Shown here piece by piece: positions 22,614-57,205 of a stretch of DNA of 64,000 bases; within the stretch, counting starts at the first letter, position 1; the number at the start of each line of letters is the position of its first letter. The position numbers were made by a program, and so were the translations under genes. Source of the DNA: an uncultured cyanobacterium (GTDB lineage: Bacteria > Cyanobacteriota > Cyanobacteriia > PCC-9006 > JAAUQQ01); the NCBI GenBank assembly GCA_963718615.1, contig OY970368.1, forward strand, positions 960,001 through 1,024,000, in the 5' to 3' direction. The notes beneath the pieces are model-generated. The model was given only the letters and a program-made list of their open reading frames with translations. It was not told the DNA's origin and did no database searches.

Positions 22614-22677
22614 GACAGAAGTTGGGGAGCAGCGGGATACGCTAGGCTATTGAAAGCTCATCGTGGAGTGTTTTTCA

Positions 22678-23112: not shown

Positions 23113-23173
23113 TATCAGCTCAAAATAATAATTTAGAACTCTGAAGAGGCGGAAATTCCAAAACGGATAAGCT

Positions 23174-23293: not shown

Positions 23294-23558
23294 GGTGGTG
23301 TGTGGCGGGTAGAGGCGGTGCGGCGTGGACTGTAAGGAAGCGTTGGCTGCATGAGTTTGTCAGAGTAAGGTCGATTTACGCATTTTCGACGTTTCAGCCG
23401 ATCTTGCCTTACAATTTGAAACCAAAGACTCTTAAAAAACAGGATTTTTTGAACGATTCTATAAGCTTTCAGGCGATATTTGGCTAGACCTGGCTTTTTC
23501 GGCAAGCTCTAAATAGCAAGAAATAGGATAGGTAGCGGGTACAGAGTATCGTCAAGAA

Positions 23559-23596
23559 AAAACTCCGCCTCTGACAACATCAGAAAGCGGAGTTTT
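23559..23596 (-). terminator. Rho-independent terminator downstream of pilA
   Basis: aaaactccgc...gcggagtttt stem with a T-run on the minus strand. Confidence 0.7.
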
Positions 23597-23774
23597 GGGT
23601 TCACACAATAATTAGCGTAGTTACAGAAACGCTAGTGTTAAAAGATTCAATTGAGTCAAAGCACCTACCTTTTGTGCAGTCGCAGATTTTTACTAGAAAA
23701 ACAAGCTGTTTGCGATATTAATCGTGCTTTACTCAATTGGCTAAGCTGATTTCGAACGGTATAGGGGCTTAAAC

Positions 23775-24395: not shown

Positions 24396-24452
24396 TATGA
24401 TGTCTCTCCTAGAGGGGTTCGGTGCCGTCTATTGTCTAGCTCCTGAATACAA

Positions 24453-24459
24453 CTTACCC
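24453..24459 (-). promoter_or_regulatory. SigF-type promoter element (GGGTAAG) upstream of pilA
   Basis: GGGTAAG on the minus strand about 60 nt before the pilA start; matches the cyanobacterial SigF -12 motif. Confidence 0.65.
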
Positions 24460-24507
24460 AGAAGACATGGGTTTCATATCATTTAGCACAGAAGCTCTGT
24501 TTCTTCT

Positions 24508-25836: not shown

Positions 25837-26082
25837 AAACTTTAGGGGGACTATATGCTGTAGGCGTTGTAAAAACAGCGTTACGAGTGAATATAAACTA
25901 CCCTCTACCTAGAGAAATACCGTAGAACTAACCTTTACTCCGATTGCAGAGACTCAAAGGACTCTGGGAGTGAGCAGGATTTTGTGTAAATCCCTAAAAA
26001 TCAACGAAAGAATCAAGATTTTAGGCGGGTCGTGCCCAATTTTGTGAACACTCCCCAGAGCCCAGCGTCCTGGATAGCCAAA

Positions 26083-26400
26083 ATATGTCTGCCAAAGACA
26101 TCAAAAAATCTCTAGCACTCGTGATTTTGTACCAAGACTTTCTGTTACAGAAATGGGAGGAGTTCAGAAATGCATAATCCCAACCCCCTCGCCCAAACCG
26201 TTACCTACAATCCCACCAACCTCAACATCATCGTCGGCTTTGGTGACGCTCGGCCCCCATCGAAATTAACCCCACGCTTGTCCCCGGCTGGCGCACCGTC
26301 ACCATCGACGACCTCAAAGCCGCCAAAATCGATCTTTACGGCGAGGCCATCACCCTTCCCTCCTATCCTGAGACCGAACTCTCCGTCCATTGGCTGAATC
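26083..26400 (+). pseudogene. Decayed DUF4160-DUF2442 TA copy
   Basis: Homologous to 27650-27960 (...QKWEEFRNA / MHNPNP...), 5' truncated and frameshifted. Confidence 0.85.
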
Positions 26401-26442
26401 TCAGGCTATGCATAACCCCAACTCGCATCAAACCATTCAGCC

Positions 26443-26548
26443 GTGCAGGCTGGGTGGCGCGAAGCAGAATCCGGCAAAGCCGTAGCTCAATGCAATATAG
26501 CTCAATACCCCTGCCTGTTGGGTTTCACTGCGTTTAACCCAACCTACG
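26443..26548. repeat. GTAG-family REP/REPIN-like inverted repeat
   Basis: caggctgggtggcgcgaagcag ... gttgggtttcactgcgtttaacccaacctac; related half-sites at about 27268 and 29543. Confidence 0.6.
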
Positions 26549-26773
26549 GCTGGTTTTGGGTTCAGGCTGACTGGCCGATCGCAACAACAAAACCTCCGCC
26601 ATCAGCTTTTGCAACAACGCCATCACCTCTGCCAACGTTGGCTGTGATGACCCTTGGCGAGACCGCTGGGCTAGCTCTGCCTCCCGTTCTTCTCGCTCTT
26701 GCCGCATCTCAGCGAGCTGCTCGCGAAGTGGCCCCGTACTTGGAATGATGTAGCTATCTTGAACGATCTCCAT
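26534..26773 (-). CDS. Small coiled-coil hypothetical protein
   Basis: MEIVQDSY... third gene of a coupled mini-operon. Confidence 0.45.
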   Translation of the reverse strand: MEIVQDSYIIPSTGPLREQLAEMRQEREEREAELAQRSRQGSSQPTLAEVMALLQKLMAEVLLLRSASQPEPKTSRRLG

Positions 26774-26984
26774 CTTGGTCCTCCAGCACCTGAATCCGCT
26801 TGAAAGCCGCCTTGTTTTCATCTAACAAAATTTGCAGCGTTTGGTTCAGCTCAGCAAAGCCCGCTCGCATCTCTGCCAGAATTTCTTCCTTGTCTGCATC
26901 CACAATCTCTTTCAAAATTTCCAAGCCACCTCGGAGCACCTCGGTGGTCTCGATGAGTTTGTCGATATCTTGGCGATCGCTCAC
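26754..26984 (-). CDS. Small coiled-coil hypothetical protein
   Basis: GTGA overlap with the upstream ORF; heptad pattern. Confidence 0.55.
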   Translation of the reverse strand: MSDRQDIDKLIETTEVLRGGLEILKEIVDADKEEILAEMRAGFAELNQTLQILLDENKAAFKRIQVLEDQDGDRSR

Positions 26985-27178
26985 TGCCCTGACAACTCAT
27001 CTAAGTTTTTGTCAACGATTTCCAACTGCTTCTTGAGCAGATACCTCAACTTTTGCGAATAACTCAGCTCGTTCCACATAACTGGGTCAATACCAGCCGC
27101 TTCCGGATACGCATCTATCTTGGCGAGCATGTCTGCAATGTCAATTTGGACTCTTTCCCTCGGTTTCTTTTGCGCCAT
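26981..27178 (-). CDS. Small putative ribbon-helix-helix-like DNA-binding protein
   Basis: MAQKKPRERVQIDI strand followed by two helices (LSYSQKLRYLL); identical copy at 29255-29452. Confidence 0.55.
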   Translation of the reverse strand: MAQKKPRERVQIDIADMLAKIDAYPEAAGIDPVMWNELSYSQKLRYLLKKQLEIVDKNLDELSGQ

Positions 27179-27494
27179 AAGTTTTCACTGACATTATTGA
27201 CATCGTAAACAGAATGGCAAGAAAAGGCAAACAATTTGCCAAATTTGACACCAACTTGCTCGGCCTCGTAGGCTGGGTGGCGCGCAGCAGAGCCTAGCAA
27301 AGCTCCGGTTCCACGCTGTCACCAGCGCGATCGACGATTCCAGAGCCACTAAAATAAAGTGACTCTCGTAGATAAGGAGAAAGCCCTGGGGTTGCAGAGT
27401 TCAAGGTTCAGCCCTCGTCACCATCGATGGCCTCAAAGCCTGCCAAAATAGAGTAGCTAGAACGCGGCGAGTAGAGGATTGGAGAGACACCTAG

Positions 27495-27740
27495 ATGCCA
27501 GTAATTGTTAGCGAACAAGGCTTTAGCGTCGTTCTGTACTTCAACGATCACGACCCTGCCCACGCGCATGTCAAAAAAGCAGGCGGCGAAGCCCGGATCT
27601 TTCTGGGAGACATAGACACAGAGCCAAGCCTATGGGACAGCGACGGGCTCTCCAACAAAGACGTTAAAAAGGCACTGGCAATTGTCATCTTGTTTCAAGA
27701 CCTGCTGCTCCAAAAATGGGAGGAATTTAGAAATGCATAA
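27495..27740 (+). CDS. DUF4160 family protein (TA component)
   Basis: YFNDHDPAHAHVKKAGGEARI...LLQKWEE. Confidence 0.85.
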   Translation: MPVIVSEQGFSVVLYFNDHDPAHAHVKKAGGEARIFLGDIDTEPSLWDSDGLSNKDVKKALAIVILFQDLLLQKWEEFRNA

Positions 27741-28002
27741 CCCCAACCCCCAGGCCAAGAGCGTCAGCTACAACCCCGAGAACCTCAACATTATCGTCGG
27801 TTTTGATGACGCACGCCCCCCCATCGAAATCAACCCGACGCTTGTCCCTGGCTGGCGTATCATCACGATCGACGATCTCAAAGCTGCCAAAATCGATCGC
27901 TACGGCGAAGCCATCACTGTTCCGTCCTATCCGGACACTGAACTCTCTGTCCATTGGCTGATCCGGCATTTTGGGAGCCAGACCCCAGCAGATTTACAAT
28001 AG
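27733..28002 (+). CDS. DUF2442-like protein (TA partner)
   Basis: Overlaps the DUF4160 stop; GEAITVPSYPDTELSV. Confidence 0.7.
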   Translation: MHNPNPQAKSVSYNPENLNIIVGFDDARPPIEINPTLVPGWRIITIDDLKAAKIDRYGEAITVPSYPDTELSVHWLIRHFGSQTPADLQ

Positions 28003-28062
28003 AGCGAGCCAAGCACCTAAAACCAGGGGCAGACATAGCAGTCGCAAACCACATCGCAAACC

Positions 28063-28353
28063 ATGCAAGCCTACAAATACACCGCCATCATTGATGCCAA
28101 TGGTCGCCTAGTTCTCGAAGAACCCCTTACACTCCCCGCTGGACAGATCCTCGAAATCGTAATCTGGATAAGTTCTGCGCCAATGCTCCATCCAGCTCCT
28201 CCATCGTCCTTACACCCCGAACCCATTGCTCGCCGCACCGTCCATTGCGACATCCCAATCCTGAAGGAATGGCTAGAACAAACCATTCCCCCGGCTGAGG
28301 TAGAGGCCGAACCAGCAAAATGGGAGTATCTGCGCTCCAAACATGGCCTATGA
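28063..28353 (+). CDS. Putative antitoxin
   Basis: IIDANGRLVL...KWEYLRSKHGL; ATGA overlap with the PIN gene. Confidence 0.65.
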   Translation: MQAYKYTAIIDANGRLVLEEPLTLPAGQILEIVIWISSAPMLHPAPPSSLHPEPIARRTVHCDIPILKEWLEQTIPPAEVEAEPAKWEYLRSKHGL

Positions 28354-28766
28354 AAATATTGGTAGATACAAATGTACTTTTAGACATTGCGTTAGAAAGA
28401 CAGCCTTTCTTTGCCGACAGCCTCCAAGTGCTCTCGCTGATTTTCCACAAGCAGTTGGAGGGATACCTATCGGCATCAACCGTCAGCGATCTCTACTACA
28501 TCATTCGCAGAAACAAAGGGCACGCACCATCCATCGACTTTATCCGACGCATCTTAACGTTCTGTCGGGTCGCAGTTGTCGATCAAGATGCCATCGAATC
28601 CGCGCTGGATTCCAACTTCGGTGACTTTGAAGATGCTATCCAACATAGCACCGCAATCATTAACCAGCTTGATTTAATCGTTACGCGAAATCCCAATGAC
28701 TATACGGATTCGACAATCCAAATTCTTACACCGATACAGTTGCTAGGAGAATTTCGCCGTGAGTAG
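28350..28766 (+). CDS. PIN domain toxin
   Basis: ILVDTNVLLD, DFEDAIQ, IVTRNPNDY. Confidence 0.9.
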   Translation: MKILVDTNVLLDIALERQPFFADSLQVLSLIFHKQLEGYLSASTVSDLYYIIRRNKGHAPSIDFIRRILTFCRVAVVDQDAIESALDSNFGDFEDAIQHSTAIINQLDLIVTRNPNDYTDSTIQILTPIQLLGEFRRE

Positions 28767-28777
28767 GCTGGCGTTGA

Positions 28778-28907
28778 ATGCAGAACTCTAACCCCCGAGC
28801 CCAAACCGTTACTGACAACCCCACCCTCGTTCCTGGCTGGCGTACCGTGACGGTCGATGAGCTCAAAGCCGCCACAATCGACCTGTAGGGCGAGGCGATT
28901 ACCCTCT
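28778..28907 (+). pseudogene. Internally deleted DUF2442 remnant
   Basis: atgcagaactctaacccc...cctggctggcgtaccgtgacggtcgatgagctcaaagccgcc with an in-frame stop. Confidence 0.75.
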
Positions 28908-29005
28908 GTACAATTCAGACAGAAAAGGGATTGAGAACCTTTAAACCCTGAATTGACTTGAAGTCATCTAACGTTGCGCGTCACTAACGTCAAATTGTAT
29001 TATGC

Positions 29006-29565
29006 ACTGGCCGATCGCAACAACAAAACCTCCGCCATCAGCTTTTGCAACAACGCCATCACCTCTGCCAACGTTGGCTGTGATGACCTTTGGCGAGACC
29101 GCTGGGCTAGCTCTGCCTCCCGTTCTTCTCGCTCTTACCGCATCTCAGCGAGCTGCTCGCGAAGTGGCCCCGTACTTGGAATGATGTAGCTATCTTGAAC
29201 AATCTCGGAGCGCCTCGGTGGTCTCGATGAGTTTGTCGATATCTTGGCGATCGCTCACTGCCCTGACAACTCATCTAAGTTTTTGTCAACGATTTCCAAC
29301 TGCTTCTTGAGCAGATACCTCAACTTTTGCGAATAACTCAGCTCGTTCCACATAACTGGGTCAATACCAGCCGCTTCCGGATACGCATCTATCTTGGCGA
29401 GCATGTCTGCAATGTCAATTTGGACTCTTTCCCTCGGTTTCTTTTGCGCCATAAGTTTTCACTGACATTATTGACATCGTAAACAGAATGGCAAGAAAAG
29501 GCAAACAATTTGCCAAATTTGACACCAACTTGCTCGGCCTCCTAGGCTGGGTGGCGCGAAGCAGA
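29006..29565 (-). repeat. Near-identical second copy of 26570-27291 with an internal deletion of about 160 bp
   Basis: Direct sequence identity; includes the ORF at 29255-29452. Confidence 0.92.
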
Positions 29566-44314: not shown

Positions 44315-45340
44315 ATGGCTCCCGCAATTCTCATTGAGAAGCTTCAAAAATCCTACGGTTCGGTGCAGGCCGTCAAAGACGTCTCGCTCCAGGTGGAAGC
44401 GGGGGAGATTTTTGGACTATTGGGTCCTAACGGTGCGGGCAAAACAACGACGCTGCGCTGTCTCTGTACCTTGAGCACGCCCGACGCGGGTAAGCTGGAA
44501 GTCAGTGGGGTGTCGGTTGTGGCGCAGCCGAAGTTGGCGCGGCAGAAGCTGGGCTATGTGGCCCAGGAGGTGGCGCTGGATAAGGTTTTAACGGGGCGGG
44601 AACTACTGCGGCTTCAGGCGGCGCTGTATCACTTGCCGAAGCAACGGATTGGCGATCGCGTCCAACAAGTCATCGATCTCCTCGGCATTGGCGATTGGGC
44701 GGATCAAAAGACCGGCACCTACTCTGGCGGCATTCGTAAACGCCTAGACCTGGCGGCGGGATTGCTACACCAACCTAGCGTTCTGGTTTTGGATGAACCA
44801 ACGGTGGGTCTGGATATCGAGAGCCGCACGGTGATTTGGAATTTTTTACGCGGTCTAAAGGCCCAGGGGATTACGGTTTTGCTGACCAGCCACTATTTGG
44901 AGGAAGTGGATGCCCTGGCGGATCGGGTGGCGATTATTGACCGGGGGCAGGTAATTGCGGTAGGGACGCCGTCGGAGTTGAAGGATCGGGTGGGGGGCGA
45001 TCGCATCACGCTCCGCATTCGTGAATTCACCCCTGACGAAGAAGCCCACCAAGTCAAGCAGATGCTTGAGCAACTTCCCTTGGTGCAAGAGGTGATCCTT
45101 AATGCGGCCCAGGGCAATTCTTTAAACCTTGTGGTTGATCCCCAAGCAGATGCCTTAGCAACGGTGCAGCAAGCTTTGCGGGAGGCGGGGTTGCCGACGT
45201 TTGGGATAGCCCAGGCGCGACCTAGTTTGGATGATGTCTATTTGGCGGCGACGGGACGGACGTTGATGGATGCGGAATTGGCGGCGGCGGGGAGTCGGGA
45301 TTTGAAGAAGGAGAAGAAACAGGCGATGAAGGGTTTGTAG
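44315..45340 (+). CDS. ABC transporter ATP-binding protein (DrrA-like)
   Basis: GPNGAGKT, YSGGIRKR, LDEPTVGLD. Confidence 0.92.
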   Translation: MAPAILIEKLQKSYGSVQAVKDVSLQVEAGEIFGLLGPNGAGKTTTLRCLCTLSTPDAGKLEVSGVSVVAQPKLARQKLGYVAQEVALDKVLTGRELLRLQAALYHLPKQRIGDRVQQVIDLLGIGDWADQKTGTYSGGIRKRLDLAAGLLHQPSVLVLDEPTVGLDIESRTVIWNFLRGLKAQGITVLLTSHYLEEVDALADRVAIIDRGQVIAVGTPSELKDRVGGDRITLRIREFTPDEEAHQVKQMLEQLPLVQEVILNAAQGNSLNLVVDPQADALATVQQALREAGLPTFGIAQARPSLDDVYLAATGRTLMDAELAAAGSRDLKKEKKQAMKGL

Positions 45341-45406
45341 GGGCATGGGGCATGGGCATGGGGCAAGGGACATGGTGGTGGGGACATGGCATTGCCATAT
45401 CCCTAC
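45337..45406. repeat. REP-like palindrome plus ggggcat short tandem repeats
   Basis: ggggacatggcattgccatatccctac; a related copy lies at about 11900-11926. Confidence 0.6.
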
Positions 45407-45499
45407 TCTCGTCTTCTGTGAATTCCTGGAACAATACCCCGATGTACAAACGGCACAAGCTAGGACTGAGACCCAACTGACACAGTTCTTTCGGGGAGG

Positions 45500-45860
45500 A
45501 GCAAGGAAGCAGTTTGAACTTCAAGTGTTCCTGGAACAGGAGGATCAATATTTACAAGTTCACGACATACAACTTTAGGGATAATGACCTGATTATAGAG
45601 TTGAGGTAAAAGTTGTAAGTGATGAATTGCCGCCAGATTCGTCAGCATCGATGTATCACTGATAACGATTAAAGCCGTCCCAACTCCTGCAAGTTTTTCA
45701 AGTCTATTGCAAAATCTTCCACGTCGTAGGAGTAGAGAGGTATGTTTTGCTGCTTAAGGAGTTGACGAAAAGCATTCAGGGGCACTTCTGCTAGCTTACT
45801 AGCATAACCTATCGTCAGATAACTAGTTTGGAATAGATGTAGGGCAATGCAGATTAGGTC
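45500..45860 (-). pseudogene. Truncated UPF0175 antitoxin + DUF3368 PIN toxin remnants
   Basis: IALHLFQ...GYASKLAEV...YDVEDFAIDLKNL* followed by VISDTSMLTNLAAI...VIIPKVV. Confidence 0.75.
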
Positions 45861-46030
45861 TCTATCTTGTTGCTCGATTGAACTGCTTTAGGTTTTGAAT
45901 AAATCAAATACGAAGATGGCTCTGATAGCTCAGTTCGGCTGACAATCAAAACTGAGTATCAGGTGGTTGGGGCTGGCTTAAATTCGCTCAAACATTACTT
46001 TAGAGTTGTTTTTCACTTTCTCTATTGATC

Positions 46031-46059
46031 CCGTCCGACTCAGGACCTATGTTAGGTGT
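46031..46059 (-). other. attC left arm (R''/L'') of cassette C; right arm degenerate
   Basis: Minus strand ACACCTAAC-ataggt-cctgagtcggac, 38 nt after the stop; complementary to GTTAGGTGT at 47860-47868. Confidence 0.65.
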
Positions 46060-46096
46060 TTTCTTATGCATCCAGCTTGTTATAAAGACAATGCTA

Positions 46097-47779
46097 CTAT
46101 ACGGGGCTTAATTGCTTGCTAATTTTGTACATCTCATCATGATTTAGCTTTAAGAGAGGCATACGAATTAAACTCCCATTTAGAGAGATGCTTCCTTGTT
46201 CCCACTCTACTACTGATCTGTTGTAGATATCTATTAAAAGTCTATCTGTAACCGTCTTAACGTCTGCAAGATTCAAGTTTTCGGAGGATAGGATTCTATG
46301 TACGACTCCGTTAAGCAATTGAAGATTAAGCACAGTAATATCTTTTTTTAGCTTCCAAACTGAATGAGTGCCAAGACCAGCACGGCACAATAGTACACTT
46401 ACACATTGAACGTTCTCGACTCTTATTTCAAATATTTCCGATATTACAGAATCACGCTCATCTTGAGGTAAATCTTGAAAACGGTTAAGTTGCTCTATTC
46501 CCTCTTTTGAACGATTTTCAACAGCTTTTGTCATTCTTGCACCTTGTGGTGGAATAGCTGCTTTCGCTTGAATATGTACCACTGTATTAGCGCTTGATTG
46601 ATAGATGAGTAAATCAAATTCTCCCTTGCTCCAATTTTTATTAGAGACGATCCTTAAACCTGGTAGTCTTTCCCATATTTCTAAAGCTTGCTTTAAAAGT
46701 GTGGGTTCAAGATGCTGTGAAACAATATTGTTGAATTGAGTCGTATTGCATCTGTTAAGAACATAGAAAATGTTTCTTGTTGCCAACATTGATCGAAGAA
46801 TATATGGGCTAAATAAATAAGAATGCGAATAATCTATTAAAGGTGGGAAAAAACCTTCACCAGAATTTTCAAAATTCTGATTGACAACATCAATAGTGAA
46901 GAAATTTAATATATTTTCAATTGCAGAACTTTTAACGTTTGTTAAAGCCATTAATAACCTTATAAAAAAGCTTTTAGCATTAAAAACTGCAACCCATTCG
47001 TAAAATTCGTGAAATAGAGTTTCCTTTCTTGTTTCACTGCTTTCATTAAGCCAAAGAAATTCTAAAGCATTTGCAAGACCAATACTGTAGTCTGCATATG
47101 CGAATAGTGCAGCCCTGATCTTACAAAACTCTTCCCATGTTGTCCCAATAGATATTTGGAAAGCGTTTGGCTCTAAAATTGGTATTTCCTTAAAACTATT
47201 TAAACGATATTGAAATAGATCGGCTAATACTCTACACATCAAAGCCATATTAATATTAGGAAGTTGATCCGCTAGTTCAATAAATTCTTGCTTTAAATTA
47301 GGAGCTTCACCAACTAAGAACGTTAAGCTAAGTTCAGTTAAAAGAACATCGTACTCTTCAGCTCTTGAAAATTCTTCATTGGGATGTATAAGCTCAAACC
47401 CTTCCTCGATTTTTCTGACCTCATAGTAACCGCGCCGTACTTCAGGCATAAGTTCGCAAAAATGGGCATAGGATACTAGCTCTCGAAAATCTTTGACGAA
47501 CAGTGCAGTAGCTGAAAAAGCATCGATTGCGCTAACTCCTATTTGTGAAGTGCATTTTCTCAGCAAAGGGATTAAGTAAGAAAGTCTACTACTTAATGCT
47601 TCACCTTCTGCTTGATTCTTAGATATGTTGTGACCAAAGCGCTCACCCTGAATCAGAATGTCGATTACCACAAATAAGCTTGTTAAAACACTCCTAAGCG
47701 GTAACTGAAACATATCAGACTGAACAATTTTGTTGTCAATTTCACCTTCGAAAGAAAAAAGATCATCTCGATCGCTCAT
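46097..47779 (-). CDS. AT-rich cassette protein with a putative C-terminal PD-(D/E)XK nuclease
   Basis: 560 aa; GEFDLLIY...VHIQAK motif. Confidence 0.55.
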   Translation of the reverse strand: MSDRDDLFSFEGEIDNKIVQSDMFQLPLRSVLTSLFVVIDILIQGERFGHNISKNQAEGEALSSRLSYLIPLLRKCTSQIGVSAIDAFSATALFVKDFRELVSYAHFCELMPEVRRGYYEVRKIEEGFELIHPNEEFSRAEEYDVLLTELSLTFLVGEAPNLKQEFIELADQLPNINMALMCRVLADLFQYRLNSFKEIPILEPNAFQISIGTTWEEFCKIRAALFAYADYSIGLANALEFLWLNESSETRKETLFHEFYEWVAVFNAKSFFIRLLMALTNVKSSAIENILNFFTIDVVNQNFENSGEGFFPPLIDYSHSYLFSPYILRSMLATRNIFYVLNRCNTTQFNNIVSQHLEPTLLKQALEIWERLPGLRIVSNKNWSKGEFDLLIYQSSANTVVHIQAKAAIPPQGARMTKAVENRSKEGIEQLNRFQDLPQDERDSVISEIFEIRVENVQCVSVLLCRAGLGTHSVWKLKKDITVLNLQLLNGVVHRILSSENLNLADVKTVTDRLLIDIYNRSVVEWEQGSISLNGSLIRMPLLKLNHDEMYKISKQLSPV

Positions 47780-47937
47780 TACTCTTACCCGCTAAATATA
47801 TAGGCTAACCTAGTCTAATATAAAGGGAGCCACCAGAGGCTTGTTACAGTTCACAACTGACACCTAACGACCTCGTTAGACTGATTGGCAAGATAGCTGG
47901 CCCTTAATTTGTTCAACGCATCCTGGTAAATCATGGG

Positions 47938-48341
47938 GGTAGTGCCTTTAGCTGGGGGATGAGTATGGTGTGGCCATTAGAGAAAGAAAAAGCAAACTGG
48001 GTAAGACCCTTCTGTGCCAATTGCAATGACTCAAGAGCTGCTTCATTGTCCTAACTGTCTATCTGAAGATATCAGCCGTAACGGCTTCAACGATCGCGGT
48101 ACTCAAAGCTATAAATGTCGAGATTGCCGTCGCCGGTTTGTCCTGACTCCGAAATCCCTTCCCTTGAGCGATCTGCGGCAAAGGGTGTCGCGCTTGGTGC
48201 GAAAGGCGCTCTCGTTTTCAAAGAAACAAGAGAACCACGAGGCTGCGATCTGGAATTTCGTTCACCATTACAACCAGCCATTGCGCCTTAAGCAGGCACA
48301 TGCCGCTTCATTCTCTCCAGCACCCACATAATTGGACTACC
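47938..48341 (+). mobile_element. Internally deleted IS1-family element
   Basis: Ends ggtagt.../...actacc; InsA Zn finger (CPNC...YKCRDC) fused to the InsB tail (LRQRVSRLVRKALSFSK...HYN). Confidence 0.8.
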
Positions 48342-48727
48342 CTAAATTGTATGGGCCAATTCCTGAGTTAGATGGGTGGTTGAGGCGACGAATTCGGATG
48401 TGTTATTGGAAACAATGGCGCAGACCGAGGACTCGCATCAGTAACCTGTTGAAGTTGGGGACACCGAAGCAGCACGCTTTTTCTACTGGCTTGAGCCGGA
48501 AGGGATATTGGCGGTTGTCGCGGACGTTGGCCACGCAGACGGGTATGACAAATGAGTGGTTGGCACAACAGGGATTGCTTTCGATTCGTGACCTATGGAT
48601 GAAAGTCCAGGGCTACGAAGAGAAGCCTGTCAGTTTGTCTAGCAGTTAGGTTGAGAACCGCCCATTGCGGAGCCGCACGATGGGTGGTGTGGGAGGGGGG
48701 ATTCGTGAGGATTCTCCCTATCCCGAT
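48342..48727 (+). mobile_element. 3' remnant of a group IIC intron (maturase tail + DV/DVI)
   Basis: LDGWLRRRIRMCYWKQW maturase; DV gaaccgcc...gtggtgtgggagg; ends ctatcccgat. Confidence 0.9.
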
Positions 48728-48846
48728 TGGGCTGCTGGCAAGACACTCAAGTTAGCGGCAATGCCATAAACTCTGCTTTTCTAGTCGCAATGTTCTGGTG
48801 TTGTTTGTCAACACAAAAATGGAATCGTACTCTGCCGAAATTCCTC

Positions 48847-50427
48847 CTATAACCTGCACGCTTCTAAGCGAGAGAAAAGACTTGGCACTCCTCTAACCCA
48901 ACCTCCCGGTCGGGGTAAATGTCCTAACGGAGCCGATGAATCAAAGATCAAATCATAATACGGTATCCAAATACTTTTTAATCGCCATCCGACGCGGTCG
49001 CCAAACTTTTCATAAGTACTATCATCATAATTGTCATCAAGCTTGCCACCACATTCTAGATAAATTTGCTTCTGAATACTGAAACCAAATTTACCGCTAC
49101 TGTATTTCACCCACAATTCATCAAGGGTGCGGAGATCTAAACAGGGGAACTGTCTTATTTCTTCCTCCCTAACCCAGTCGCTTTCTCTCCGACCAATAAG
49201 CTTGAGTATGATCTTATAAGTTTCATAATCAGCTTCTTTCCATCTCCCAGCCTTTAACAAATCTCGGAGTAAAGTATAGTCCAAACCCCGCTCAGAACTA
49301 AGGTTATCGTGGGATGCTTCAACAGTCAAAGATGAATGTTGGGTGGAAGCAGACTGCTCAGCAACTACCTGTGCTTCAATTGCTGCAATATCTTCATCTC
49401 GTAAACCTAAATATTGCCGATAGTCTTTCAGATCCCTTAGAGATCCTTCACTTATAGGATTCTCCACCTGCATTACCTCAAGCAATGCCTCTTTATATTC
49501 TTGCAGTTTGCGTCGGTACTCTCGATGAGGTTGTAAAACCTCAACCTCAATTGCATGTGCCTCCGCTTCCGACAAGCCAAGTTGTTGTTTCAATACGTGC
49601 AAGACTCTACGAGCTACAGAGGATAATTCATCACGACTGGCAAAACGTTGTAATTCTTTGCGATATCTTAGTTTTGAATTGTCTACAGGTACTTTGGCTA
49701 GCAGAATCTTGTAACCTTCCGCAGCAGTGTAAAACATAGGAGTCATTGCTGGAGCAGCCGCTCTCACTTTGGCTTGAACGTACTCATGTAATTCATCAAC
49801 AGCAATAAAACCATCACTATCTAAATCGGCTGCTCCCGTTGCAATCCCCTCAACTAAATAACGGGTATAAAGTGACAGGTCAGATTCCTCCTGCCAAAAA
49901 GCATACTGGGTAGAGCTAGAGGAGGTTAGAATAGCACGTCCAACACCACCTAACTGTGCCCGGATATCGATATGGTCGTCGTCTCTGACAGGTAAAATCT
50001 TTACATCTCGACCAAATGTTCCACTAAAATCGCAATCTAAAATGACTACCTGTCTACGAGAACGACCATTACTCATCATCTCTTGAATGAATCTAGCTGA
50101 AACAGCAGTAGATTTTGCGAATCTATCCTTATCCTTTCGAGTGTTCCGAGTAGCTAAATAAATCTCTTCATTGTCGTCTTTAATTCCATGACCAGAGTAA
50201 TAGAATAATACCAAATCATTATTCTGGCTCTTAGAAAATAAATCATCTATGGCTTCTTCCATCTCTTGTCTACTTGGATTAGCTAGTAGAGAAGCCTGGT
50301 CAAATCCACCTACTTCGGGGTCTCGTAAAACGCGAGCCATTGCCTCGGCATCTACTCCTGCGCTTGGGAGTGGATTTAACCCCAGTTCATACTCACTCAC
50401 CCCTATCAATAGTGCAATTTTAGCCAT
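48847..50427 (-). CDS. Caspase (peptidase C14)-GUN4 fusion protein
   Basis: ALLIGVSEY, FYYSGHG, LDCDFSG; GUN4 DYTLLRDLLKAGRWKEAD...GKFGFSIQK. Confidence 0.88.
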   Translation of the reverse strand: MAKIALLIGVSEYELGLNPLPSAGVDAEAMARVLRDPEVGGFDQASLLANPSRQEMEEAIDDLFSKSQNNDLVLFYYSGHGIKDDNEEIYLATRNTRKDKDRFAKSTAVSARFIQEMMSNGRSRRQVVILDCDFSGTFGRDVKILPVRDDDHIDIRAQLGGVGRAILTSSSSTQYAFWQEESDLSLYTRYLVEGIATGAADLDSDGFIAVDELHEYVQAKVRAAAPAMTPMFYTAAEGYKILLAKVPVDNSKLRYRKELQRFASRDELSSVARRVLHVLKQQLGLSEAEAHAIEVEVLQPHREYRRKLQEYKEALLEVMQVENPISEGSLRDLKDYRQYLGLRDEDIAAIEAQVVAEQSASTQHSSLTVEASHDNLSSERGLDYTLLRDLLKAGRWKEADYETYKIILKLIGRRESDWVREEEIRQFPCLDLRTLDELWVKYSSGKFGFSIQKQIYLECGGKLDDNYDDSTYEKFGDRVGWRLKSIWIPYYDLIFDSSAPLGHLPRPGGWVRGVPSLFSRLEACRL

Positions 50428-52333
50428 TGTCTATCTCATGAGTAACAAATGCTAGTAAACTGTGAATCTCATCATTATCAGACTCTATATCTAATGCCTT
50501 TCTGAGTTGCTCCTTTGCTAGTTCAAACTCTTTTTGCAGTCTCAAATCTCGACCGTACCCTAACAGTGCTTGAATATAGTTTTCTTTAGTTCGTACTGAA
50601 TCAATCTGAAATCCCCTTGCATAAAGTGCTGACGCTTTACCAAAATCCTCAATCTCTAAGCACGCTGCTGCCATATTAAGTAGAGCACTAAAATGATTGG
50701 GGTTTAAATCTAGTACCTGACTGTATAGATCAAGCGTAGTTGTCATCTCACCCTTCTGATGCAACTCCATTGCTCCTTGATAAATACGATTAGCCTCTGG
50801 CTCCAACTTCTCCAACTCTCTTATTTCCTGGCGGAGTGGATAACGTTTGATTAACCAACGGCGGACAAGTTCAATTTTTACTTTATATGCGGGTGCTTTG
50901 GAATCTTTTATAAAATCTAGGAAATTCCATTCAACCAGTCGTTTTTCAGCATCAACTAATGGTTTAGTCCGAACAACTCCATATCCCTCCAACAACTCTA
51001 GTGGTAGAACTAATTTAGATTCTACTCTGGGTAGCCCAAGTGTTAGAACCTGTCCCACACGAACGTGCTGTAATTCTGTACTGACTACAACTGCCCCTAG
51101 TCTTGGATCATAGGAAGCGATCCAGGCTGTAGAGGGTAACTCACGCATCAGATAGCTATATAACCAGGTTGGAGCACGACCCGTAATGACTATTCCAATG
51201 TTCGTATCAATCTCTTCAGGTAGCTCTAGATTTACGAGATCCTGCGGCTCGATAACCCCACTTTCAGAGAGAAGTTCTATGGTTAACCACTGATATCTTA
51301 AACCTTCATAATCTTGCTGTTCACTTAATTGAAAGCGAACTGAGGCATTAGATGTTTGACTAATGTTACTTTGAATATCTAAATCACTGACTTCTTTGTT
51401 GGCTTTCTTTTGAGCTTCTGCTACAGCCGAAAAGACAACCCGTTCAGGAATGGGCAACCCATCTCGAAACCATGCTAAACCCGCTTCACCAATCTCAATT
51501 GCTCTATCTACAATTCTTTCTACATTTTCACAAATAATTTTCCAGCTTTGTTGCTCTCGTGCGTATCCAAAAAGCGTAAAACATATTAATTGTGTAAAGT
51601 AAGGATGTCCTGCTGAGAGGTTAAGAATTGCTTGTATAGCTGCTGAATCGTACTCTAATATTTCTTTAGCAGGTTCAACAATTAAACGCTTCGCACTCGT
51701 TTCATCAAGCAAACCAATCTCTTGACTAGGCGCTTCTTTGAATAAACTGAGTAACTTTGGCATGTCATCCAGTCGTCGTCCCACAACCGGAATGAGAAAA
51801 AGTTGTTTCTGTCGATGAATGATTGACTGTAAGTAGGGAAAAAAGTGTTCAACTGCTGTCTCTGGGTTATAGCTACTTAAGACATCAAACTCATCCATTA
51901 ACAAGACTAAGTTTCTGCCTCGCAATGCTTCATAAACTTGAGACAGAAAAATGCGAGAGAAAGCACTTGAATCTTCTTTCAGTTCCGTTGCTGAAGGTAA
52001 TGTTATCTCTTCTAATGGCAGTTCAAGTTGATCGACAATTTCCATAGCAAGATAGTGCAACACATCACTAAGAGGTGTTTTGCTTCTATCTTGAAGATCA
52101 AAGAGTACAAAAGAAAACTCGTTCAATCCGACACACCTTGGAATTTGAGAGAGTACAGAAGATTTGCCAATACGCCGTTGACCATGCAGCAAAATAACTT
52201 TTGCACCTGACTTCAGATTATCCTTAACGAATTGAAATAAATTTTCTCGCCCAAAAAACAGATCTGGCTTGTCGATCGGACTGCCAATGTCATAAGGATT
52301 TCTCCGAGATTGTGGAGACATCATAATCATCAA
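50420..52333 (-). CDS. STAND-like ATPase with inserted Csx3/Crn3-like domain and C-terminal TPRs
   Basis: NPY...FFGRE, GQRRIGKSS, LLMDEFD, GHPY; GIVITGRAPTWLY...YDPRLGAVVV; TPR helices. Confidence 0.8.
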   Translation of the reverse strand: MMIMMSPQSRRNPYDIGSPIDKPDLFFGRENLFQFVKDNLKSGAKVILLHGQRRIGKSSVLSQIPRCVGLNEFSFVLFDLQDRSKTPLSDVLHYLAMEIVDQLELPLEEITLPSATELKEDSSAFSRIFLSQVYEALRGRNLVLLMDEFDVLSSYNPETAVEHFFPYLQSIIHRQKQLFLIPVVGRRLDDMPKLLSLFKEAPSQEIGLLDETSAKRLIVEPAKEILEYDSAAIQAILNLSAGHPYFTQLICFTLFGYAREQQSWKIICENVERIVDRAIEIGEAGLAWFRDGLPIPERVVFSAVAEAQKKANKEVSDLDIQSNISQTSNASVRFQLSEQQDYEGLRYQWLTIELLSESGVIEPQDLVNLELPEEIDTNIGIVITGRAPTWLYSYLMRELPSTAWIASYDPRLGAVVVSTELQHVRVGQVLTLGLPRVESKLVLPLELLEGYGVVRTKPLVDAEKRLVEWNFLDFIKDSKAPAYKVKIELVRRWLIKRYPLRQEIRELEKLEPEANRIYQGAMELHQKGEMTTTLDLYSQVLDLNPNHFSALLNMAAACLEIEDFGKASALYARGFQIDSVRTKENYIQALLGYGRDLRLQKEFELAKEQLRKALDIESDNDEIHSLLAFVTHEIDNG

Positions 52334-52408
52334 TCCTGAGCCATGAGATCGAAGAGAAGACAGTAAAACAACTATAAGTAGAACACGTACTCTATACTCA
52401 ACAAGCAG

Positions 52409-53707
52409 CTAACCTGACACAAACCCTTTGGGAATGGCACTAACTAGCTTGCTAACCCATTCAATAACAGAGGGCACTTCGTCCTTATGCTGCCACAAAT
52501 ATCGAATCCCAGTTTTAACTTGCTCTGCTTGCTTGCTGCTCATTAGGTTGAGAAAAACCTTTTGGCGTTGTTGAAGTTCCTCCTCGTTGCTATTCTCGAT
52601 TTCTTTAATTACCCACCACTCCATCATTGACGAGGCAAATGCATAATTTGGTCTGCCCTGTTGCATAGTTCGGATAATTACTCCCCGTTGTTCCAAATCT
52701 GTCAATTCACGCTCTCGTTGACTAAAGACGATGCTGATGTCGCCCAAGTCATAATTCTTACGCTGTAAACGACCTTTTAGATTAGATAGAGCAATCAACA
52801 TTAGAAGTGTCTGTTCCTCCTGATTTGACATTTCCCAGGTTTGTTGGAAAAATTGTTCAGTTGCACTCAGGAAGTCTCGCGTGAATGCTTCAGGATCGGG
52901 CATCTGCCCAGTATGGAGTTTGTCATATAAAAGATAACCAGCATGTTGAATCAGTGCTGGATGTCCATCAGTAATTTCTCGAATCCCCTCCCGCAGTGCC
53001 GTTGTCATTGGCATACAACCTAATAAAGTATCAATTTCACTATCAGTAAATGGTTTGAGAGGTTGAAATAGGTAGTGATTATACCACGGAGACTTATCTG
53101 GCGAGAGCTTGGGTCCAAGTTCGTTGAGCCGACGAAATGAAGTCACGATCATTGAGAGACAACCTTTACTCTGAACTGCCAGGTTACGAGTCTCGCTCAG
53201 GAATATCTCTATGCTGCTCTCCTTATACTGATCATGCGGACGGAAAGCAGCATCATAGTTATCTAGCAGCAGCAGTAGAAACTTATTTTGTTTTCCTATT
53301 TGCTTCAAGAACTGACGTAAGTCATCCTTTGTTGCTTCAGCCTTCCTAAGGGATTGGTCGATCCCAGTTTGTAAAAGGTCATCATCAACAAGTTCGTCCT
53401 TGATCAAGCTTAGGATCTCTCGCCAGAAGGTAGCTGGTAGAAAGGGCATTATGCCCAAGCAGTCCAGGTAGATAATGATAGATTCAGAATGTTCACATCC
53501 ATAGTGTTGCCAAACTTGAGGAGAAATCAGCAGTTCCAAAAAAGATGACTTACCCATCCCCGCTCCACCCCAGATGGCTAAACTGCTACGACTAGCGATT
53601 CGATCAAAAGCAATACCAATTTCAGATGCCCATCCGACAAAGCTTTCTGAAGAAACTAACTTTCCAGGAGAAAAGGGATTTTTTGACATGGCATTCGCTG
53701 AGTCCAA
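52409..53707 (-). CDS. STAND-like P-loop NTPase
   Basis: NPF, GGAGMGKSS, LLLLDNYD, GHPALIQ. Confidence 0.8.
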   Translation of the reverse strand: MDSANAMSKNPFSPGKLVSSESFVGWASEIGIAFDRIASRSSLAIWGGAGMGKSSFLELLISPQVWQHYGCEHSESIIIYLDCLGIMPFLPATFWREILSLIKDELVDDDLLQTGIDQSLRKAEATKDDLRQFLKQIGKQNKFLLLLLDNYDAAFRPHDQYKESSIEIFLSETRNLAVQSKGCLSMIVTSFRRLNELGPKLSPDKSPWYNHYLFQPLKPFTDSEIDTLLGCMPMTTALREGIREITDGHPALIQHAGYLLYDKLHTGQMPDPEAFTRDFLSATEQFFQQTWEMSNQEEQTLLMLIALSNLKGRLQRKNYDLGDISIVFSQRERELTDLEQRGVIIRTMQQGRPNYAFASSMMEWWVIKEIENSNEEELQQRQKVFLNLMSSKQAEQVKTGIRYLWQHKDEVPSVIEWVSKLVSAIPKGFVSG

Positions 53708-53900
53708 AGGTCTTGATTAGGAGTTTTCCTTTGACTAGCTTAGCCCCACTGATACTTTTTGAGTACTACTCCTACAAATAACGAGAAGCAGCCCAACGTC
53801 GTAGCTGAGCCGCACCCGTCAATCTGCCAATACTGGCGACAACGTCGTCAGGACGGCTCGCTGAGATGTGAATGCTGTCGTGTCGGCTCCAGCGCAGTGT

Positions 53901-54370
53901 GTACGCCCAGCATGGGCGTGAGCTAATGGGGTGAAAGTCCCCTGTGGGAGAACCAGCCATCCAAATGCTCGTATTAATTGGAGCCGAGAGATGGACAACC
54001 ACTAGCCTAAGGCAAGGGCGTCTTCGCGAGAAGGGGTCGGTCGGAAACCAGACTTTTGGATTGCGTCTGCTTTCGGGTAAGTCGCTTTTCTAGGCTCTGT
54101 TTCACCGTGGGAACTCCCTATTAGCGCCAGTGTCACTTGCAATGAGTTTCTGATTGCGCCCAGCTCCTAGCTTCGATCTCCCGAATTCCGAGTCGGGTCA
54201 TCGTGGGCAGATCAGGAGTCACATCCGAGTTTGATGGAAGGGACTTTCACCCTCATCAAGAGGACAGTTCAGCTCTTGAGAGTGCTTCATGTTTGGAAGC
54301 CAAGCTGGCAGAGTTATTTATGGGCTTGCACCGTTATTCATCTGCAACGAATCGCACCCCCTATCCCGAT
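53901..54370 (+). mobile_element. Internally deleted group IIC intron
   Basis: 5' gtacgcccagcatgggcgtg...gggtgaaagtccc; 3' ctatcccgat. Confidence 0.85.
54040..54357 (-). mobile_element. 5' fragment of a second (IIB-like) group II intron nested antisense
   Basis: Minus strand starts GTGCGATTCGTT and contains gggtgaaagtccc. Confidence 0.7.
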
Positions 54371-54406
54371 TAGGTGTTGCTTAGATGTCACTTATCTAAG
54401 AACACT

Positions 54407-55234
54407 TTAAACATTTGCTTGCTGTAAAAGCTTTAAAATAGAAGTTGAACGGGTCATATAGGAAAGCCCAGTATGATGAAACATTGGTGGCACAGATGTT
54501 TCATCCCAAAAATGACCAGACATGATTCCCGCAAGCAATGCAGGTCGCCAAGTCGGATCGTCTATATCCCCGCCAGGACGAAATCCTCTCGCTGGCAAAA
54601 AGACCGGGCTACCACTTGATCCAGAAAAAGACAATCCTGATACAAGAATTATATCGTCTGTCTTTATTTGGTCGTTAGTGAATGATATCTGTGGCAGAGA
54701 AGCTACTGTACATTGACGGGCTACAGGAAGTTTCCATTTTTCATCCCACCAGTGCCGGCCATTCTTCCCTGGAAAACCGATAAAGAAGGATGTTTCCATC
54801 GGTCCAATAATTAGACTATTGGCAAAGTTTTTCTCATCAATAAGGTTTTCAAACTTAAGAATTTCTCTATTTGGATCGAATGGGGTTTCTTCATGGAATA
54901 CAGGTTCAACAAGAATAGAGCAGTCAGAAGATGGGGAAGAGAATAAACAACTTTCTATATTTGCCACATCAAAGAAATCTGTATTCTCTGCAGGCTGGTT
55001 TGATTCATAATATCGTAACTCTATAGAAATCCTATCGAGCTTTAATCCTGGCTTGTCGGGGAATCTTATAGATGGATCAACATTATGTTTGTTGGTGACA
55101 AAAATATTCTTTCCAGTCTGGGAAATCATCCAAAATCCAGTACCACAACCAGATTTTTCGTTTCCTATATCATCCGTAAAATTTACTTTGATGCGGTGGA
55201 TCATCCAAAAAATCTTTGGGTTAAGACCAAGCAT
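54407..55234 (-). CDS. Trypsin-like serine protease (cassette A)
   Basis: GTGF, VTNKH, SDCSIL, SGSSGSPVF catalytic triad motifs. Confidence 0.85.
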   Translation of the reverse strand: MLGLNPKIFWMIHRIKVNFTDDIGNEKSGCGTGFWMISQTGKNIFVTNKHNVDPSIRFPDKPGLKLDRISIELRYYESNQPAENTDFFDVANIESCLFSSPSSDCSILVEPVFHEETPFDPNREILKFENLIDEKNFANSLIIGPMETSFFIGFPGKNGRHWWDEKWKLPVARQCTVASLPQISFTNDQIKTDDIILVSGLSFSGSSGSPVFLPARGFRPGGDIDDPTWRPALLAGIMSGHFWDETSVPPMFHHTGLSYMTRSTSILKLLQQANV

Positions 55235-55298
55235 ATGGCTGTTCTCAAACTTATTTATCTAAAAAACTAGGTTAGATCTAATACTTGTTGAACTGACT

Positions 55299-55545
55299 AC
55301 ACCTAACAATTTATTCTCATGCACGATGCCTGATAACTCCCTCCTCTCGCTATTCTCAAGTATCAGCGCCGTATAATCCCCAGCCATGACCTATTACCCA
55401 TGCAATTATGCTGGATAACATCCCTGGTTAGGTATTATCAGGCAACGCCGCATGATAACAACCCATTTCCAGGCATTATCCCCGCACAGCCGCCGGATAA
55501 CATCCCTGAGCAGGTATTATCAGGCATGTCTCAGTATAATCATCC
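55299..55545 (-). other. attI-like site with about 41-bp periodic repeats
   Basis: Minus strand ...gaataaatt-GTTAGGT; repeats GGATAACATCCCTG...GGTATTATCAGGCA at 55413 and 55495. Confidence 0.55.
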
Positions 55546-55717
55546 CCTTTGAGTCAGCGTAGAAAATTACAAAATCTTCACCCCCGAGTCAGGGAATCCA
55601 AAGGCTTCAGCCTCGCTTTCCATGCAAACCCAGCCGCCCCAGACACTGTCCCAAAACTGACTCTAGCCAGGGATGCTTCTGTGACATTACACCCATGACG
55701 ACTCCCCGATTCATTGG

Positions 55718-57205
55718 CTACGCCCCCAAAACCGCCTCACCCTGCCGATACAGCTCCCGCGCATAATCCGTCCATTGTCCCTGGCCCCAGTAGCGAAAAC
55801 AGCTAGTTTCTAACAACAGCACATACAAAAGCGCCGCTTGATAATCCGAACGCTGCGTCATCGCAGGATCAGCCGCCACGAGGGCGTCGTATTTTTGATG
55901 AAACTGAATGCTCAAGCGCTGCATCGGTTCAAGGACGTTTTCATAACCCTGGACCCAGCTCAGATCATTCGTCCAGGATGCCCCGTCGAGGTGAAATTGG
56001 GGGTCTGTGTCGCGCAGGTGCTGGATGGCGATCGCCACCCCCTCCGGCGTCACAGAGTCTGTCCCCAGGTGCTGCCAAATCCTATGCTGATGCACCGCCT
56101 GACAGACAGGATAATCCTCAGGCTTAGCGCCTAGGGCTTCAATCAACTCCAAATATTCCGTCCCATTCATCGCCACCGTTCCCGCAGCATTGCCCCCCCC
56201 ATCCCGAATTTCGTGATACACCCGGAAGAGATCACGGGGATACTCGTTCATCATCACACCGCCGTTTTCACCATCCGCAATCTGAGACACCAGCGACGGA
56301 ACTTCAACCTCGCCTAACCGCTGACGGCCCCAGCCCTTGGCTTCAAAATAGGGCTGCATCTGAGCCACTAGCTTGGTGTCCGATCCCTGGGTTTTAATTA
56401 ACGCCGTGATGCTGATACTTTCTCCTTGAGCGTTGCGAGCCACTAAACGGTTGGGCAAATACTTGTCAGATTGATGCAAGCCCGAGCCATCTAGCCGCTC
56501 AACGGAATGCTCTTGCACCAACAACCAGCGATAGCCACAGTCCTTCAGGGCTTTGATATATTCATACAAAACATCGGGATGATTGGGCAAATGCATCTCC
56601 GGCGGCGAAAAGCCCTTGACCCGAGCCAGGGCTGCGGTGCCAAAGGTTGCCGCAAACTGGTGCTGCCAAGCCTGAATATGAAGCTTCAGATCCGGCACTG
56701 GCGTTGAAGGAACAACCGCATGGCTCCACATCGTCCCCAACCATTCCACCTGGAGCTGATAGCGCTGATCGCAGGCAATTCGCCGCAGCTTGTCGAGAAT
56801 GTCTTGCCGCTGCATCTGTTCCAACGCCCAAAGCAAATTGCCCGAATAGTCGAGCATAATGCGGGGATTACAGCCCTGGTCAATCAGTGCGGGGATAAAG
56901 TCCCCCATGCGTCCATAGCAATCTGCAAAGACCCCGGCGTTGTGATTGTCGCCATCGTGGGGATGCTCGAACATGTGTTGCAAATTGGAAATCAACGCAC
57001 CTTCAGGACCCGCCGGAATCGTCGGCTGATGCATATGCAGCGCGCAAGCGAAGCCAGACTGGAGGCGATCGCCCTCTAAATTCGTCCTCCCCAGAAACAC
57101 TGGCTCCGTTCCCTGAACCCAATCCCGCAACTCCGCCTCTCGGCCCGCAATGGGGGGCAAGGATTGACACAGGGCCGGCAACTGAGATGTAGTTTCAGCA
57201 ATCAT
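55718..57205 (-). CDS. Glycoside hydrolase family 57 protein
   Basis: ALHMHQP, FSPPEMHLP, IADGENGG, ETSCFRYWG. Confidence 0.88.
   Translation of the reverse strand: MIAETTSQLPALCQSLPPIAGREAELRDWVQGTEPVFLGRTNLEGDRLQSGFACALHMHQPTIPAGPEGALISNLQHMFEHPHDGDNHNAGVFADCYGRMGDFIPALIDQGCNPRIMLDYSGNLLWALEQMQRQDILDKLRRIACDQRYQLQVEWLGTMWSHAVVPSTPVPDLKLHIQAWQHQFAATFGTAALARVKGFSPPEMHLPNHPDVLYEYIKALKDCGYRWLLVQEHSVERLDGSGLHQSDKYLPNRLVARNAQGESISITALIKTQGSDTKLVAQMQPYFEAKGWGRQRLGEVEVPSLVSQIADGENGGVMMNEYPRDLFRVYHEIRDGGGNAAGTVAMNGTEYLELIEALGAKPEDYPVCQAVHQHRIWQHLGTDSVTPEGVAIAIQHLRDTDPQFHLDGASWTNDLSWVQGYENVLEPMQRLSIQFHQKYDALVAADPAMTQRSDYQAALLYVLLLETSCFRYWGQGQWTDYARELYRQGEAVLGA

Follow-up and report, generated by a model that had tools for sequence, protein, structure and literature searches.

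A probable decayed integron with interrupted attC sites in a cyanobacterial chromosome

A stretch of 64,000 nucleotides (nt) from an uncultured cyanobacterium (contig OY970368.1 of assembly GCA_963718615.1, positions 960,001 to 1,024,000; in the following termed the window) contains an island in which the minus strand carries every long reading frame. The island comprises an attI-type block, three cassettes (A, B, and C), and several inserted mobile elements, and the segment from 45.85 to 55.64 kb is very probably a decayed chromosomal integron. Its features are listed from the right end to the left:

55622-55639, plus strand: intI stub, ATG plus 5 codons (MQTQPP), corresponding to the start of the integrase remnant at L001:17645
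55308-55642, no strand assigned: attI-type block (candidate insertion site plus integrase upstream region), 335 nt, with repeated GTTATC/GATAAC-type motifs
54371-55307, minus strand: cassette A, single frame 54407-55234 (275 aa); its start, GTTAGGTGT, adjoins the attI-type block
53901-54370, plus strand: degenerate group II intron without an open reading frame (ORF), in the bottom strand of the cassette A attC, between GT and TAGGTGT
53791-53900, minus strand: attC body of cassette A with R' box GTTGGGC, L box, and variable part; the R'' box is completed by 54371-54377
48728-53797, minus strand: cassette B, 5.07 kb, three genes, starting with GTTGGGCTGC (53797-53788) and ending with the complement (48735-48728)
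52409-53707, minus strand: B1, STAND/NACHT-like NTPase
50420-52333, minus strand: B2, STAND, Csx3, and TPR domains
48847-50427, minus strand: B3, caspase and GUN4 domains
48343-48727, plus strand: relic of a group II intron with an ORF, 3' part only, antisense to the cassettes and directly followed by TGGGCTGC
47938-48342, plus strand: internally deleted copy of an IS1-family insertion sequence (IS), with Zn_ribbon_InsA and DDE_Tnp_IS1 in frame 48014-48331
47869-47937, minus strand: probable remainder (3' half) of the cassette B attC, flanked by the cassette C start and the IS1-type copy, with no other match in the genome
46051-47868, minus strand: cassette C, single frame 46097-47779 (560 aa), with the cassette A start motif at its own start (47868-47860, minus strand) and the complement at its end (46059-46051)
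45852-46050, plus strand: IS110/IS1111-family 3' footprint, 199 nt, antisense to the cassettes and adjoining the end of cassette C

The cassettes, their ends, and their cargo

The island is set off from its surroundings by composition. The motif HIP1 (GCGATCGC) occurs at 75 sites in the window, compared with 1.13 expected, whereas a motif count across the window gave 0 sites from 45004 to 56028; the contrast between a HIP1-free island and HIP1-rich flanks had been noticed in the original prediction, an earlier reading of the same DNA, and is borne out. The guanine-cytosine (GC) content ranges from 0.33 to 0.45 over 45.5-55.5 kb; it is higher in patches at 48.0-49.0 and 53.5-54.5 kb, which coincide with the inserted elements. 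This foreign composition (no HIP1 over 11 kb, low GC) supports the interpretation as a decayed integron. No tRNA genes were found in the window, which therefore offers no tRNA-type integration site.

The boundaries of the cassettes are marked by short motifs, all of which were found again at the positions claimed for them. The motif that opens cassettes A and C occupies 46051-59 of the plus strand, its complement ACACCTAAC at 47860-68 and 55299-55307, TAGGTGT at 54371-77 with its preceding GT at 53899-900, GCAGCCCAAC at 53788-97, and the motif following the intron relic at 48728-35. Each cassette of the window opens with G|TTRRRY and closes with the matching RYYYAAC (n = 3), so that the description as three co-oriented minus-strand units with a GTTRRRY start and a complementary inverse end holds in all three cases. 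The motifs sit precisely at the edges of blocks which are repeated elsewhere in the genome.

The agreement of the two ends was quantified by comparing the first 12 bases of a cassette with the reverse complement of its last 12, using nine cassettes of the genome including the three in the window. All nine matched their own end with an identity of 8-11 of 12 bases (9/12 in cassette A, 10/12 in cassette B, and 9/12 in cassette C), and the mean matching run after GTT was 5.3 for own ends (n = 9) compared with 1.67 for 72 mismatched pairs. A run of 4 was reached by nine of these 72 pairs, since the box is common to some cassettes. The matching of own start and own end is what a crossover at G|TT predicts, and the idea that matching R boxes are present at the two ends of the cassettes is thereby upheld, every start fitting the reverse complement of its own end.

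Regarding the cargo, the protein of cassette A matched the candidate defence family PDC-S45 of PADLOC (E 1.1e-15) and, weakly, Trypsin_2, and no homologue at E<=1e-10 was detected among 300 other sampled genomes of the phylum. The cassette C protein gave no family match and likewise no homologue at this threshold in the same 300 genomes; its nearest clusters in the ESM Atlas are unnamed. R boxes were looked for in the gap between B1 and B2 and none are present. The cargo, i.e., a STAND NTPase/Csx3/caspase-GUN4 module, a PDC-S45-like protein, and one unknown protein, is probably anti-phage, a role which is plausible from the family names. The earlier designation as defence-type cassettes is backed by PADLOC/Pfam family matches for A, B2, and B3; it finds no defence match for C and B1.

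Cassette B recurs in another genome of the family (locus L025, genome G344) with the same three genes, B2 showing 78% amino-acid identity. The homology starts there exactly at GTTGGGCTGCTTCTCGTT (GTTGGGC), behind a different cassette, and the region upstream of it contains a different small gene as well as an attC-like site, which extends from GGCTAAC to GTTGGGC. At the other end, the similarity stops a few bases before the R'' box of the window. Genome G344 possesses one intact integron integrase (C56:4708-5646) as well as fragments (528365, 509626), and its cassette array is located far from the intact gene. In addition, contigs from one metagenome study match cassette B at 90-99%, and one of these aligns from 48727 onward, its first 135 nt being unlike the window. 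Metagenome scans with the proteins of cassettes A and C found nothing; no RNA run was listed as containing the sequence, the three metagenome runs of this study contain about 10% of the words, and missing contig cover of cassettes A and C carries no meaning.

The attI-type block and the integrase

The block at 55308-55642 contains a 52-nt direct repeat and produced 11 further BLAST matches in the genome, six of them covering at least 275 of the 335 nt. Every copy starts directly after ..AAC and joins its first cassette there. Three copies adjoin integron-integrase remnants (3859645, 4713843, and 4646399). At one of them (L001), the block is immediately followed by a plus-strand frame (17645-18274) which scores 258 bits with TIGR02249 and features Phage_int_SAM_4 and a truncated catalytic domain; the other two adjoin shorter integrase fragments. 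The similarity to the L001 remnant ends in the window after MQTQPP, so the integrase gene is reduced here to 6 codons and no integron integrase is found within the island. The previous statement that the window lacks intI is therefore right with respect to a gene in the island and overlooked the stub at 55622-55639. The integrase side and the cassette side of the block face away from each other, as in integrons. Because paralogous blocks adjoin integrase remnants and the window keeps six intI codons, the block is read as a putative attI-type site.

Such a site may be likened to attI1 of class 1 integrons, in which the junction at G|TT is likewise preceded by short repeats with a GTTA-type core. 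The repeats of attI1 are accessory integrase-binding sites, which those of the block may resemble; unlike in attI1, the block repeats are far more numerous and extend over about 300 nt.

One of the five integrase loci of the genome is intact. This integron integrase (G000:C1:948635-949606, the prefix denoting chromosomal coordinates of the present genome) lies 57 kb upstream of the island, scores 444 bits with TIGR02249 (cut-off 265) over positions 1-313 of 315, and can be aligned with IntI4 (2a3v, E 8e-90) over its whole length, the part that separates the catalytic motifs included. The genome-wide search for intI which had been recommended was thus successful. The intact gene adjoins one large cassette, which is bounded by a perfect 10-bp inverted repeat and ends in the same type of IS110/IS1111 footprint as the array of the window. 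The 874-aa product of this cassette (L004:5357-7981 = G000:C1:945357-947981) contains EAD8, CHAT, TPR, and periplasmic-binding domains. Among 301 sampled genomes of the phylum, the present one included, 17 possess an integron integrase above the cut-off.

The attC sites and the elements within them

The proposal that one attC can be reconstituted proved correct for cassette A on removal of the intron 53901-54370. Depending on the cut (53899-54370 or 53901-54370), the rebuilt site has a length of 113-115 nt and features a 7-bp L box (TGAGCCG/CGGCTCCA); on the bottom strand, the R''-side arm of this box contains one additional base. For cassette B, the absence of a duplication around the IS1-type copy precludes rebuilding the attC, and that of cassette C is cut off by the IS footprint.

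Uninterrupted attC sites are present elsewhere in the genome. In these, the R boxes pair, a spacer of 3-5 nt remains open, and single-base bulges occur on the R''-side arm; their folds reached z values of -3.8, -3.3, -2.3, -2.3, -1.5, -1.1, and -0.3. A family of attC sites with conserved arms is represented by nine copies at <=3 mismatches, seven of which are located in arrays beside an attI-type block or hold the IS110/IS1111-type IS. The arms of this family are conserved and the loops variable, as in Vibrio repeats, and two members hold a full IS110/IS1111-type element. A heuristic genome scan for R-box pairs combined with fold energy resulted in 108 scattered candidates, which were mostly due to chance and were dropped. 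The sites are:

G000:C1 427140, 2245121, 3133794, 3852927, 3907884, 4100584, 4649970, 5014241, plus one weaker: conserved-arm attC family (3907884, 4649970, and 5014241 uninterrupted)
G000:C1:4668886-4668971: separate uninterrupted attC site

The insertion at 53901-54370, suggested to be an intron, is intron-derived according to its homology to copies at the loci L020 and L021. The first 153 nt of the stretch 53899-54370 match copies in other genomes from the first base on, and the L020 and L021 introns score 114 and 83 bits with Rfam RF02001, in addition to RF01998 and RF00029 (39.4, gathering score 40). Both are inserted at the same position of attC-like sites, and in L020 the flanks rejoin to GTTAGGC. 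The 3' part of the window intron (54022-54370) has six other copies in the genome, each followed by T(A/G)(G/T)(G/A). Furthermore, the attC site of G003 shows the L box of the cassette A attC with a compensatory C/G exchange and an intron at the same position, and it folds as expected for an attC (z -2.9). The ribozyme of this G003 intron spans about 735 nt (L020:1503-2236), leaving no room for a reverse-transcriptase gene. The intron copies of the window gave no Rfam hit, and a search for reverse transcriptase (RVT_1) found no match in the genome.

The insert 53899-54370 was also considered as an IS1111-type miniature element and rejected, as pairwise scores were not above those of shuffles and the copies from other genomes, which fixed the 5' end, showed an intron. 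A 10-mer is shared by the insert (window 53910-53919) and the attC family, and an 11-mer by the insert and the IS end; the shared 10-mer may be due to chance, target mimicry, or an old intron footprint.

At the attC of cassette B, the stretch 47938-48727 had been regarded as a removable intron. This applies to 48343-48727, which contains a GIIM fragment (24.6 bits, cut-off 23) in a 105-aa frame and whose terminal 78 nt or so look, on inspection, like the L020 intron (Rfam-positive) in its domain V/VI region and 3' end; the relic is of the same lineage as the intron at the attC of cassette A. The remainder (47938-48342) is the deleted IS1-type copy. Nine genome copies match both of its halves at 97-99%, and in them the halves are separated by about 455-520 additional nt; reading of the sequence around the copy revealed no target-site duplication.

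The IS110/IS1111-type footprint at 45852-46050 had been overlooked. Six other copies exist in the genome, which extend about 1 kb further upstream. In the full copy at G000:C1:2245116-2247006, a 421-aa protein (L003:4535-5800) is encoded which matches DEDD_Tnp_IS110 and Transposase_20 (96 and 59 bits). As the full copies extend upstream and encode an IS110 transposase, the 199 nt of the window are the 3' footprint of such an IS. In all seven copies, GTTA(G/T)(G/A) follows directly after the IS end, and two full copies interrupt attC sites belonging to one family. For Pseudomonas arrays, a degenerate terminal footprint was reportedly described by Tetu and Holmes in 2008.

The intron pieces and the IS footprint of the window are antisense to the cassettes and lie at the 5' end of attC. 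This agrees with PMC3001079, according to which the bottom strand of attC is the target of group IIC-attC introns, their orientation being opposite to cassette transcription, and IS1111-attC elements go into the antisense strand close to the 5' end of attC; attC is confirmed as a target of class C introns in a passage of PMC4424553. Like S.ma.I2 and its relatives, as these two papers describe them in part, the present introns are inserted in the bottom strand, part the gene from its attC, and run antisense. They differ in that the lineage is cyanobacterial and the window copies are degenerate and without Rfam hit. Likewise, the IS resembles the IS1111-attC group (ISPa21 and ISPst6, cited in the part of PMC3001079 concerned) in its DEDD transposase and its site-specific antisense insertion near the 5' end of attC; compared with that group, the window holds only the last 199 nt, and the likeness derives from domains and insertion site. 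Regarding attC-targeting introns of cyanobacteria, the literature search found only a general review.

A fossil array or a dispersed integron

The decayed integron or CALIN (cluster of attC sites lacking integrases) that had been proposed is supported by the integrase-linked block, the genomic integrase, the matched cassette ends, the intron, and the rebuilt attC. According to a section of Cury et al. (2016; PMC4889954), integrons occur in Cyanobacteria and 36 genomes possess more than one integrase; CALIN are characterized there as attC clusters without an integron integrase, with pseudo-integrases near 15 of 279. The criterion used for a CALIN is at least two attC sites with no integron integrase nearby. 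The array of the window resembles CALIN and decayed integrons by its co-oriented, promoterless-looking cassettes with R boxes, the loss of the integrase with an intact one elsewhere in the replicon, and the IS inside. Unlike in a typical CALIN, an attI-type region survives here with a 6-codon integrase stub, and the block is found at about ten further places in the genome.

The following history would account for the locus. The cassettes would have been captured singly, as circles, by an integron integrase that recombined the folded bottom strand of each attC with an attI site. With a crossover between G and TT, the first bases of each cassette would have become complementary to its own attC, and a promoter within the attI block would have transcribed the cassettes. 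Later, the deletion of the integrase and the breakage of the attC sites, which an IS1-type element, an IS110/IS1111-type IS, and a group II intron lineage did invade, would have left a fossil array incapable of excision. As the integrase is deleted and the attC sites are broken, the array would no longer be excisable, despite the intact integrase 57 kb away.

Several observations weigh against a decayed integron. Only one of the three attC sites in the window is reconstitutable, two are truncated, and on inspection none is intact. The minimum-energy fold of the rebuilt attC of cassette A leaves the R boxes unpaired and is no more stable than shuffles (z -0.25 and -0.30), so that of the bottom-strand fold anticipated earlier, the L box with an extra base was found and the stability was not. 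This extra base is a C on the bottom strand, whereas the extrahelical base of the L box is usually a G. Three of the six uninterrupted sites of the attC family also fold weakly (z -0.26, -1.06, and -1.51), as does the attC-like site of L025 (z -0.45). Rfam, which holds no attC family, gave no hit in 44500-57000 and none in three paralogous loci. A cassette with three genes in 5.07 kb is unusual. Regarding expression, one cassette-facing sigma-70-like site was found (minus strand 55461-55434) compared with 0.8 expected. By BLAST, the sequence upstream of the intact integrase is not similar to the attI-type block of the window, on which this enzyme would therefore not necessarily act. Finally, the nearest genomes belong to other genera, with 73-75% identity in flanking genes, and none is close enough to show cassette-level variation at this locus.

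The strongest alternative is that the array is not a fossil and the intact integrase acts in trans on the block of the window and about ten others, together forming a dispersed multi-site integron. This is rather unlikely. In its favor, the genome has one intact integrase, different cassettes lie beside the 11 further block matches, uninterrupted attC sites exist at other loci, and part of PMC4889954 argues that cassettes without a nearby integrase may be mobilized in trans. Against it, each of the three attC sites of the window suffers an interruption or truncation inside its R'' box or beside it, the sequence upstream of the intact integrase is unlike the block, and neither circular junctions nor variants were seen in the metagenome contigs. 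A related and similarly doubtful idea is that the integron platform itself multiplied in this lineage, giving about ten attI-type blocks with short arrays and one surviving integrase; if true, the cassettes of a distributed integron would be shaped by attC-targeting group II introns and IS1111-type elements, which might even contribute to their formation. The pattern of one intact integrase plus fragments is repeated in genome G344. The search of the literature found no paper on multi-copy cyanobacterial integrons; it did not extend to supplements, and that of PMC4889954 may list the present genome.

The further matches of the attI-type block are located at:

G000:C1 292652, 295424, 417516, 427907, 745658/745756, 3859331, 3906953, 4096875, 4646419, 4713823

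These about ten dispersed blocks each lie beside different cassettes on the chromosome, and their outer flanks share only integrase remnants. At G000:C1:4646826-4656179, 12 co-oriented low-GC frames are situated beside an attI-type block and an integrase fragment, and this run includes at least one attC of the conserved family (4649831-4649992). A cassette of the locus at 4714 kb (L002:4622-5668 and L002:53-1597) encodes a protein with a minimal CRISPR polymerase (mCpol) domain; the decayed integron of this locus lies near ilvD.

It is considerably less probable that the GTTRRRY/RYYYAAC ends, instead of being integrase sites, serve the IS110/IS1111-type element and the intron as target half-sites, the island being a generic defence island which was subsequently invaded. 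Both element types are indeed site-specific, with (G/A)TTRKR after every copy. Nevertheless, the motif is also found at junctions of cassettes with the attI-type block that lack an IS or intron, it borders uninterrupted hairpin sites, the two ends of each cassette agree beyond the shared core, and the blocks adjoin integron-integrase remnants.

A transposon, Tn7-like or other, with 45852-46050 and 55308-55642 as its ends and the genes as cargo is very improbable. The two repeated blocks flank variable cargo at several loci, the right block is rich in short repeats, and one paralogous locus contains a Mu-transposase-like gene. However, the left block belongs to an IS110-family element, of which it forms the 3' end and which brings its own transposase; outside the right block, the copies have only integrase remnants in common; and the island of the window contains no transposase gene. 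The Mu-like gene is paired with IstB and thus belongs to an IS21-type insertion, which counts against a transposon: at L001:12364-14722, an IS21-type element (an IstA-like protein with Mu-transposase C-terminal domain, plus IstB) lies in the cassette array beside a Schlafen/AlbA_2 gene. A Tn7-like transposon in particular was ruled out by the IS110 nature of the left block, the IS21 pairing of the Mu-like gene, and the unshared right flanks.

That the inverted 9-/10-mers are chance matches in AT-rich foreign DNA is hardly credible despite the lacking enrichment with one mismatch (8 in the window, 7.34 expected), since the exact 9-mer has 3 copies within 9.3 kb compared with 21 across the 6.1-Mb genome (about 0.03 expected per such stretch), all exact copies lie at boundaries of repeated blocks, and the same end rule is found in all nine cassettes and in another genome.

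The locus, read as a decayed chromosomal integron, agrees with known biology in all its parts; the type of element is already known, and nothing here alters the current understanding of integron function. The findings document the association, in a cyanobacterium, of integron cassettes with a group II intron lineage that targets attC and with an IS110/IS1111-type IS, a three-gene STAND/Csx3/caspase-GUN4 module acting as one cassette in two genomes, and unusually many decayed integron platforms within a single genome. Since every attC is interrupted, model-based finders may miss the array, and a careful reading of the sequence can recover an integron array of the kind that such finders may overlook.

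The surroundings of the island comprise two further features. To its right, the neighboring gene had been named GH57; the 495-aa frame at this place (55718-57205) gave no Pfam or NCBIfam match, and the name is not retained. At the far end lies a broken gene pair, which is possibly another cassette remnant:

45460-45785, minus strand: toxin-antitoxin-like remnant, broken, GC 0.41

Within it, a 38-aa frame (45669-45785) matches the C-terminus of UPF0175 with 29 bits (cut-off 27.9), and the frame 45460-45648 shows a weak match to PIN_4 only (E 0.086). Long gaps without HIP1 also occur at 21810-26973 and 26980-29247 of the window, which may mark other foreign segments.

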